Positions 44,535 through 46,170 of a stretch of DNA of 64,000 bases are shown one piece after another. The stretch covers positions 29,078,001-29,142,000 of the forward strand of contig OZ024757.1 of NCBI GenBank assembly GCA_964016885.1, given 5' to 3'. Position 1 is the stretch's first letter. Every line of letters begins with the position of its first letter. Position numbers and translations under genes: made by a program. The stretch comes from Eledone cirrhosa (Eukaryota). The notes under the pieces are model-generated. The model was given only the letters and a program-made list of their open reading frames with translations. It was not told the DNA's origin and searched no databases.

Positions 44535-45140
44535 ATTATTCAGAATATTAATAAATGAAGACATTCACATAATCAAAATATATGTTTTATTATATATATT
44601 TCGAAGGTACTGTGTTGTCTTTTCAGTACGTTCTCGTCAGATAAAATACATGAATTGATGTATGACATACCTCAACGGTCTTGATAGTTCAATTCCAGTA
44701 ATGGCAGTGATTTATTACAACAAATCTCAACATTTATATACCATAAATAATAACAGGATAAACTTAAATTTAAAGAAGAAGAGGACGTGGGGTGAGATAG
44801 GGATATAAGGAAGGGGTGAATATGAGATGCAAGAAAAAAGTAAAATAAATAAATACATACATACATAAATATTTAAACAAGTAAATAGATGTATTAGGGA
44901 AGAAATATATAAAAAGACAAAAAAAGGAAGAAAGAGAGAAGAAGAAAGAAGAAATAACGGCAAAACAGAAAGAAATGAGGGGGTAGGTAGACAGACCGTT
45001 GTTTTAAAATATTAAGTTAAATTGATTAATATTCAAATTTATTAATATTCTGAATAATATTAATGACTCCAGAAAACTTCTTGTAGAGTGCTTTTAATCT
45101 ATTGTAAAACTATATTCATTGAGTAATCAATGAACCATAT
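44535..45140 (-). mobile_element. Divergent family D element: hammerhead, upstream UTR-like segment and inverted 3' copy
   Basis: 44535-44555 is an inverted copy of 45037-45058; 45060-45095 carries actccag...gagtgct as at 46085-46107. Confidence 0.65.
44582..44651 (-). ncRNA. Type I hammerhead ribozyme (divergent family D)
   Basis: ATGTATTTTAT-CTGACGA-GAACGTACTG aaaagacaaca CAGTACCTTC-GAA-ATATATAT-A-ATAAAACAT; 9 of 10 stem II positions pair, with C-C at position 4. Confidence 0.88.
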
Positions 45141-45260
45141 TAATCTTTGGTTATATATATATATATAGATAGATAGACACACATAAACACACACACATAC
45201 ACACACATATATATATATATATGCATATATATACATAACGGCACATATATATATATGCAT

Positions 45261-45306
45261 ATATATACATAACGGCACATATATATATGTGCCGTTATGT
45301 ATATAT
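45261..45306. repeat. Perfect 46-bp palindrome
   Basis: atatatacataacggcacatatatatatgtgccgttatgtatatat. Confidence 0.9.
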
Positions 45307-45409
45307 ATCTATGCATAAACACACATATATATATATGTACATAAACATATATATATATACAAAAAAACATATCCTGTACACACACACATGCACAGACACA
45401 CACAGAGAT

Positions 45410-45456
<47 letters not shown>

Positions 45457-45801
45457 GTGTATGTGTGCATATATATACGTTTATATATTCTCCGAGAGAG
45501 AAAAGCCTTCCCACGAGGATCTCTTTCTCAATGGAAATCTGCTTGGAGGTTCTATTTGTTTGGGATATGAAACCGCGGTAAGGGCACATATAGTAAGTAC
45601 AGTGAATTTTTTGGAATCTAAATTTTTTATATATTTTTTAGGATATTTTTTGTGTTTACACTCCCTGTGTTTTCTATGTTCTGGCTTGGTAATTTATTAA
45701 CTTGCCATTGAACCACATTAGCATATAGTCGGACTATACTTGTGTCCCTATGTAGGAACATATACCTTTAATATATATGTATGTGTGTATATATATATAT
45801 A

Positions 45802-45832
<31 letters not shown>

Positions 45833-45837
45833 GTGTG

Positions 45838-45868
<31 letters not shown>

Positions 45869-45902
45869 ATATATATATTTGTGTATATATATATATATGT
45901 AT

Positions 45903-46170
45903 ATCCAGCGTACTTTCAACCGTCAAGGTTGTTTTCCATGGCTATGTCACTATTTATAAAACACATTTTGTATTTTATCTGATGAAAGCGCACCAAGACT
46001 GCCTTGGTTGCCCTTGAAATATATATAATAAAATAATTATGGTTTTATAAATATAGTTTCCATTTATTAATATATTGAATATTTACTCCAGTAAGCTCTT
46101 GAGTGCTCTATATCAGTTATAAACATTTAAGTTTGTTGGAATCCCAACAAATTAAATATAACTTCTGCAT
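45903..46170 (+). mobile_element. Most complete family D element (PLE terminal-repeat-like) inside (TA)n
   Basis: Hammerhead followed by an actcc...gagtgct 3' hairpin; homologs at 13661, 29802, 44535 and 46326. Confidence 0.8.
45971..46035 (+). ncRNA. Type I hammerhead ribozyme (family D)
   Basis: TATTTTAT(45971-78)-CTGATGA-AAGCGCACCAAG actgc CTTGGTTGCCCTT-GAA-ATATATAT-A(46027)-ATAAAATA; perfect 8-bp stem I. Confidence 0.9.

Follow-up and report, generated by a model that had tools for sequence, protein, structure and literature searches.

Hammerheads and insertions of the window

The window analyzed here, by which we mean the whole 64,000-nucleotide stretch of Eledone cirrhosa DNA introduced above, is AT-rich, microsatellite-laden eukaryotic DNA in which TA repeats dominate the lists of open reading frames and repeats. 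It contains three type I hammerhead motifs (copies 1 to 3) within a family of short insertions, which lie as follows.

45971-46035 (+): copy 1, a type I hammerhead with its core at 45979; C45989 faces C46012 at pair 4 of helix II; helix III at 46019-46026
44583-44648 (-): copy 2, a type I hammerhead of a distant subfamily with its core at 44640; C44630 faces C44606
29844-29908 (-): copy 3, a type I hammerhead closely related to copy 1, with its core at 29900; C29890 faces C29867
45897-46168 (+): whole insertion with copy 1, comprising a short 3' UTR remnant, the hammerhead, an extended helix I and a long tail; TA on both sides
44537-44995 (-): insertion with copy 2, with about 350 pyrimidine-rich nt upstream; ends in TA; upstream boundary approximate
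44996-45150 (+): related piece with tail, on the opposite strand, adjoining the upstream end of the copy 2 insertion; boundaries approximate
29799-29990 (-): whole insertion with copy 3, short-ended and without tail; TA on both sides
13664-13889: fourth insertion, an inverted 5'-truncated half (+, about 13812-13889) joined to a direct long-tailed part (-)
46337-46516: fifth insertion, an inverted half (-, GAA at 46384) with the palindrome AUGCGCAU, plus a direct tail (+)

All three copies carry CUGANGA, GAAA, U16.1 and an AUA cleavage site. Their cores are intact, as the initial annotation of this DNA had claimed, and conform to the definition of a type I core that we applied (C3 U4 G5 A6 N7 G8 A9, G12 A13 A14, A15.1-U16.1 and H17). 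A descriptor of this type matches the window three times and finds nothing in any of 200 block-wise Markov shuffles. The limits previously given for copies 1 and 3 are exact, whereas those for copy 2 (44582-44651) add a few flanking bases to the motif. The cuts are predicted after A46027 in copy 1, A44591 in copy 2 and A29852 in copy 3, and a three-helix layout with an open helix I and intact core-adjacent pairs is predicted for the copies. When folded with their flanks, copies 1 and 3 take up the hammerhead frame, in which helix I is extended (z -3.3 and -3.2), while copy 2 folds differently, with other hairpins preferred (z -1.8).

The catalytic core of the copies is the same as that of the Rfam hammerhead families (clan CL00010). 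The Rfam search proposed in the initial annotation nevertheless returned no match at gathering thresholds in the whole window, and no hammerhead model of the clan reached E<=10 on copy 1 or copy 3 (copy 2 was scanned in the whole-window runs only); in the whole-window scan by E-value, microsatellite matches to miRNA models dominate among the matches listed (150 of 1068). A covariance model built from the three copies, which had been suggested for a genome-wide search and was run here on the window alone, recovered no additional full copy. A search for relatives gave no match in either of two scans of prokaryote genomes, and its matches in viral contigs (1 and 3) and metagenome contigs (7) were all rejected as chance: candidates L001-L008 lack proper helices (L006 and L007 come closest, the latter lying inside a bacterial-type ORF), L134 has no helix past pair 3, and L135 and L136 obtain no score with the covariance model. 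The window also contains a hammerhead of another family at 30217-30293 (-), within a 160-nt inverted duplication (30206-30367), which has a perfect 6-bp helix II with G10.1-C11.1, a Hydra-type ACUC/GAGU helix III, a poorly paired helix I and a weak match to Hammerhead_3 (23.8 bits).

The family is a high-copy repeat. Searched with 264 nt, it was found in 5929 contigs of run X1 and in 27483 of 12.5 million reads of X7, a RAD-seq set whose read counts are inflated by the probable restriction site considered below, as well as in 52 and 4 contigs of two more organisms. Its insertions in the window measure about 180-600 nt and all five pieces are flanked by TA tracts. Two of them combine an inverted 5'-truncated half with a direct part, and the copy 2 region, where the piece 44996-45150 (+) and the 3' end of copy 2 have 21 identical nt, shows a similar arrangement. 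In its inverted half, the fourth insertion retains the 3' strand from another, third type of helix II, including the C of pair 4 (C13823), whereas the fifth has lost helix II at its junction. Elements of the family stop either about 50 nt past the cleavage site or beyond an additional tail, and reads show both kinds of end running into TA. The window hammerheads are solo or inverted, none being in tandem, and few joints that go back into the element occur in reads. Because they are solo and truncated, these copies are likely inactive or dead, and any constraint on their sequence would have acted in the source elements.

Several other features were noted in the window. Among them is a dispersed SINE-like repeat of 150-310 nt, with about eight copies of 81-89% identity:

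6260-6567, 7741-8048, 9807-10045 and 38769-38960: SINE-like repeat copies
39977-40141, 42693-42872, 43639-43997 and 53503-53652: SINE-like repeat copies

A second dispersed repeat occurs at about 29420-29540, 49684-49807 and 51675-51818, and a short repeat with internal inverted arms has three copies (10218-10364, 27216-27357 and 30463-30533). A direct duplication of 930 nt (6005-6924/7474-8401, 98% identity) lies beside an N gap and may be an assembly artefact. The frame of 122 residues at 50946-51311 (+), which has no Pfam match, resembles the C-terminal portion of LINE reverse transcriptases. A single C2H2 zinc finger at 43255-43473 (+) scores just below the Pfam cut-off (24.3 versus 25.2 bits), and a long perfect hairpin at 42395-42505, an inverted triplet-type repeat, obtains sub-threshold scores with miRNA models.

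Covariation of helix II and the C-C mismatch

Helix II has 10-12 pairs in the window copies, and 10-14 bp across the family when read consensi are included, with a C opposite a C after the first three pairs. The alignment of the three copies bears out two claims of the initial annotation, namely that helix II has diverged while remaining paired through compensatory changes and that the fourth pair is C-C throughout. Five of nine helix II pairs are changed on both sides, two (pairs 2 and 7) are invariant and one is interrupted in copy 1 by a bulge, while pair 4 is C-C in all three copies. Six control alignments with a slid register are all far worse than the real one; shuffled columns reach the covariation score in 6 of 500 trials, a weak test given its three related rows. 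Folded in isolation, the helix II of each copy places the C-C in a 1x1 internal loop (z -2.3, -3.3 and -2.8). The terminal loop of helix II is not conserved, only 3-6 of 13 columns being identical between copies. Copies 1 and 3 are close kin: they agree in 13 of the 16 paired columns of helix II, as against 7/16 and 6/16 in the comparisons with copy 2, so that the full copies of the window amount to about two lineages rather than three.

Additional forms of the helix were obtained from consensus sequences of loose read ends, and the helices II that could be read represent about three independent lineages in all. Taking window copies and consensi together, pairs 1-3 appear in three full forms and pair 5 in two. 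One loose-end type has A-U, G-C and G-C at pairs 1-3, followed by C-C and then by ten more pairs, and its 3' strand was found independently in the window at 13812-13826; in another consensus, each of the four proximal 3' positions of helix II is a C. The 3' C of pair 4 is present in the four window pieces that retain the position and in the five loose-end consensi showing it, which come from three organisms (A, B and C). As for the 5' C, the three window copies have it, and so do three of the four consensi extending to it in register, while the remaining one (X7, position 46012, agreement 0.67) is too blurred to call; however, two X7 consensi overlap what we take to be a RAD restriction site covering the 5' C, so that this C would be forced in them. 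No repair of pair 4 by G occurs in any copy or consensus that was read. The matches listed comprise 40 of 98 variant rows, so the absence of positions 45989 and 46012 from them proves nothing; outside them, up to 16 X7 rows may fall at the C positions, and C-to-G rows number at most one in X1, one in X7 and none in X5 and X6.

The rough chance that both C's were kept twice at the observed turnover (7/16 columns kept between copies 1 and 2) is 0.01-0.05, for a feature that was chosen post hoc. In a small and rough phage control (86 distinct cores from 125 loci in a partial scan, without filter on helix I or III), pair 4 is C-C in one of the 86 hammerhead-like cores and in none of the seven with a continuing helix. 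The hammerhead of the other family at 30217-30293 (-) has no C-C in its perfect 6-bp helix II; the mismatch is thus a property of the family and not a host-wide need. Judged from the approximately three lineages read, the C-C of pair 4 is likely to have been selected.

Helix I comprises 6-9 A-U-rich base pairs between a U-rich and an A-rich strand, its sequence is nearly invariant, and across the three-copy alignment, where it has 6-8 bp, no compensatory change is seen. Its A strand tolerates A-to-G substitutions in reads, among the matches listed, and its U strand shows no change among the same matches (40 of 98 variant rows). In copy 1 (45950-45961/46042-46054) and copy 3 (29920-29931/29826-29837), helix I is prolonged past an internal loop by another stem, of about 12 bp, which is absent from copy 2.

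Probable dimer cleavage, tail hairpin and probable type of element

Helix III is an 8-nt self-complementary stretch that is predicted to form no stable hairpin of its own and to be stable only as an intermolecular duplex, with computed self-duplex energies of -3.2 to -2.2 kcal/mol for the AUAUAUAU and AUAUGUAU versions. Three palindromes occur in the five pieces: AUAUAUAU, AUAUGUAU and AUGCGCAU. The second is the copy 3 type, the duplex of which contains G-U pairs, while the third differs from the first by four base changes, every one of which is compensated. Likewise, the commonest read variant among the matches listed, A46023G, keeps helix III pairing via G-U. A palindromic, covarying helix III implies that these ribozymes likely require dimers for self-cleavage, as folding predictions for helix III also suggest; in unconstrained minimum-energy folds of two copies, the full active dimer appears for none of the three. 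The initial annotation had overlooked this helix III, along with the type of element and the nature of the copies as solo, truncated remnants. Where an active element carried hammerheads in tandem, helix III would arise from pairing between the 8-nt palindromes of two neighbours, which would then cut the precursor RNA, in agreement with the dimer model via palindromic helices III proposed for Penelope hammerheads (PMC4209133).

The long tails contain a further hairpin, defined by RCTC...GAGY followed by RCT and located by motif search:

46085-46107 (+): tail hairpin of the copy 1 insertion
45066-45092 (+): tail hairpin of the piece beside copy 2
46433-46460 (+): tail hairpin of the fifth insertion
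13724-13747 (-): tail hairpin of the fourth insertion

These are the only four matches in the window; all lie in family tails, one in every long-tailed piece, with an AT run before them. At least four matches occur in 2 of 200 shuffles, a modest enrichment by count for a motif defined post hoc, and it is thus the position of the motif that carries the weight. Of six new Hydra consensus sequences, three stop 36-47 nt past the cleavage site and three reach the tail; inspected by eye, the latter have the motif exactly in two cases (Hydra-2_Amil and Hydra-2_Ajap) and partially in one (Hydra-1_Crog). The motif lies 38-43 nt past the cleavage site in Hydra-2_Ajap and Hydra-2_Amil versus 57 nt in copy 1, and both have GCTC/GAGC where the family has ACTC/GAGT. 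Its carriers, as recognized by eye in these consensi, are thus Hydra-clade elements of a coral and a sea cucumber and, in part, of a copepod. No description of the motif was found in the published passages on Penelope-like elements that we examined. The hairpin may be a candidate recognition signal for the reverse transcriptase or endonuclease of the element, and possibly a clade-wide one.

The anatomy of the family, with a hammerhead in a terminal repeat, inverted 5'-truncated copies and an optional tail, is the one seen in Penelope-like elements, for which inverted 5'-truncated copies and optional tails are hallmarks (Craig et al. 2021, PMC8557442); the TA flanks, inverted truncated halves and tails accord with the link to Penelope-like terminal repeats that the initial annotation had drawn. 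A (TA)n target combined with a hammerhead is typical of the Hydra clade (PMC8557442), and here all five pieces are inserted in TA tracts and the hammerhead is canonical with a short helix III. TA targeting is also known in Naiads and is thus not unique to the Hydra clade. The Naiad/Chlamys clade is described as lacking the canonical hammerhead (PMC8557442), and the full hammerheads present here rule out membership in it. Penelope-like elements have an ORF for a telomerase-like reverse transcriptase with a GIY-YIG endonuclease, and Hydra-clade proteins are marked by RWK and DKT motifs, a CxCX5C linker, the lack of CCHH and a C-terminal position of the endonuclease (PMC8557442). A Pfam scan of 104 of the 248 candidate frames revealed neither a reverse transcriptase nor a GIY-YIG domain, the family pieces being too short for an ORF, so that clade membership is inferred from other traits: TA target, form of helix III and shared tail hairpin indicate that the repeat is likely a Penelope-like element of the Hydra clade.

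Non-LTR retrozymes consist of tandem repeats of 150-400 nt. A unit of about 300 bp has been given for them, and at least two tandem hammerhead units are needed for this identity, which we rejected since the window copies are solo or inverted and flanked by TA. The retrozymes of animals carry type I hammerheads in non-coding repeats derived from Penelope terminal repeats (PMC7229834; bioRxiv 10.64898/2026.07.22.740005).

The family agrees with Hydra-clade hammerheads, as presented in the material of PMC8557442, in (TA)n insertion, in a type I motif near the 3' end, in inverted truncated halves and tail, and in a self-complementary helix III of 3-4 bp, which together with a tiny loop characterizes 26 of 26 Hydra rows in File S2 of that study; most Penelope/Poseidon motifs have a helix III of 0-1 bp instead. 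It differs from them in its longer helix II (10-14 bp versus about 3-9 bp) and in its A-U-rich helix I of 6-9 bp, with an extra distal stem in copies 1 and 3. No listed Hydra sequence matches the window family, the octopus Hydra-1_Obim hammerhead being different, and none of the 26 Hydra rows of the supplement has C-C at pair 4; by eye, a fixed helix II mismatch of another kind, U-U at pair 1, is present in 14 of 25 Hydra families (PMC8557442).

The Penelope hammerheads described by Cervera and De la Pena (2014, PMC4209133) are also of type I and mostly solo, with palindromic helices III and large helices II of 6-8 bp showing many compensatory changes, so that the 10-12 bp of the window copies are somewhat longer and a long helix II, contrary to what had been supposed, is not exceptional for Penelope hammerheads. 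The Aedes motifs of that study have a long helix III palindrome similar to that of the window family. In contrast to its motifs, the window copies lack an additional unpaired nucleotide between A9 and helix II, and copies 1 and 3 do not keep G10.1-C11.1. Among the 56 representative Penelope hammerheads of its supplement, none has an internal C-C in helix II; in two of them pair 4 is a mismatch of a different kind (U-U and C-A), of which the Clonorchis one is absent from the sister family. Family-fixed U-U mismatches in helix II have further precedents in the retrozyme HHR_Amex2 (PMC7229834; bioRxiv 10.64898/2026.07.22.740005) and in another report (PMC3088659).

We also searched full-text literature for hammerhead ribozymes with a C-C mismatch in stem II and retrieved no paper, although a prior listing (Lunse et al. 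2017; Arkhipova et al. 2017; Repbase; Dfam) is possible. The proposal of an undescribed variant thus holds in part: the C-C was not found catalogued in the papers examined, whereas fixed U-U and pair-4 mismatches have precedents. Earlier work already describes hammerheads of Penelope terminal repeats, their long, covarying helices II and their palindromic helices III; what is likely new here is the fixed internal C-C at pair 4 in a family of hammerheads from likely Hydra-clade Penelope elements.

Possible roles of the C-C mismatch

In the canonical extended hammerhead of the Schistosoma type, helix II has 4 bp and its terminal loop docks on a loop situated 6 bp up helix I (PMC4209133). The window family does not belong to this type, because its helix II has 10-12 bp and ends in an unconserved loop. 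Its helices I (6-9 bp) and II (10-14 bp) both continue without a break through the zone of the canonical contact between loops 1 and 2, and the soft pyrimidine-pyrimidine loop at pair 4, near the point at which the canonical loop 2 starts, would replace loop 2 as the docking point of the long helix II against helix I. Docking is the simplest reading of two helices that cross the docking zone, of which one has an unconserved terminal loop and the other a nearly invariant sequence. The idea in the initial annotation of a tertiary contact or a protein-binding site is thus plausible as a putative role. We lean, with a confidence only slightly above even, towards these motifs being dimer-cleaving type I hammerheads in remnants of likely Hydra-clade Penelope elements, with the C-C as a selected, flexible 1x1 docking loop.

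It is somewhat unlikely, yet far from negligible, that the C-C is instead a tolerated, neutral defect inherited from the founder of the family and not yet changed in its few subfamilies. Among the three full copies, two are closely related, other helix II pairs (2 and 7) have remained unchanged too, pair-4 mismatches occur in the two Penelope hammerheads mentioned above, with the Clonorchis one not shared by its sister family (PMC4209133), and three proximal plus 6-10 distal pairs are predicted to be enough for helix II to fold. However, an unpaired column should change faster than paired ones, and here both C's were kept while the loops turned over and five pairs changed on both sides; moreover, wherever its position can be read, in three organisms, the 3' C has been retained. 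Selection might also have acted on the mismatch only to weaken helix II, for refolding or reverse transcription, the identity of the bases being secondary. Repair by a C-to-G change is computed to gain 5.8-6.7 kcal/mol, i.e. about 6, and one added helix II pair lowered the activity of another natural hammerhead (PMC3088659), but any mismatch would serve this end, whereas C-C alone is found at pair 4 in the copies and consensi that were read, and we regard such a role as very improbable.

The next best reading, because the Penelope hammerhead of Anolis needs the protein of its element, is that the C-C constitutes a handle for the element's own RT-endonuclease or for a host protein, which would gate cleavage or mark the template. 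The Anolis ribozyme cleaves only when that protein is added (PMC11167929), Penelope hammerheads are slow in vitro (PMC4209133), and a helix I nearly invariant in sequence without covariation would suit protein binding as well. Conversely, the minimal protein-binding region in Anolis lies downstream of the 5' part of the ribozyme (PMC11167929), the tail hairpin is a better candidate for a recognition signal in the window family, and no element protein was found in the window frames scanned (104 of 248). We consider such a handle quite unlikely. Even less credible, to the point of being barely conceivable, is that an overlapping reading frame, starting at the AUG of CUGAUGA, keeps the C's in place. 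Copies 1 and 3 do give equal frames of 11 codons, and the ORF of the Anolis element begins at helix II (PMC11167929), but copy 2 has ACG in place of AUG, helix II with its loop varies in length (30, 30 and 31 in the three window copies), indels of one and two bases are common in the loop region of reads, and a stop falls at the core GAAA; the loop indels and the ACG of copy 2 led us to reject coding constraint.

A bolder extension of the docking reading would combine an undescribed contact between helices I and II, formed by the C-C loop and the invariant U-tract of helix I and possibly clamped by the element's own protein, with a tail hairpin that acts across phyla (coral, sea cucumber and copepod) as a start signal for reverse transcription of Hydra-clade elements; we consider this combination unlikely. 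Neither the C-C nor the tail hairpin alters the known picture of Penelope-like elements as carriers of dimeric type I hammerheads. As this family is missed by Rfam, it would be a useful addition to the models. With respect to the function of Penelope hammerheads and their slowness in vitro, a fixed defect in the midst of a fast-turning helix II offers a single, easily mutated position for testing, which may be useful for studying how hammerheads are activated without the canonical loop-loop contact, while the shared tail hairpin is a specific candidate for an RNA signal by which the end of the element is set.
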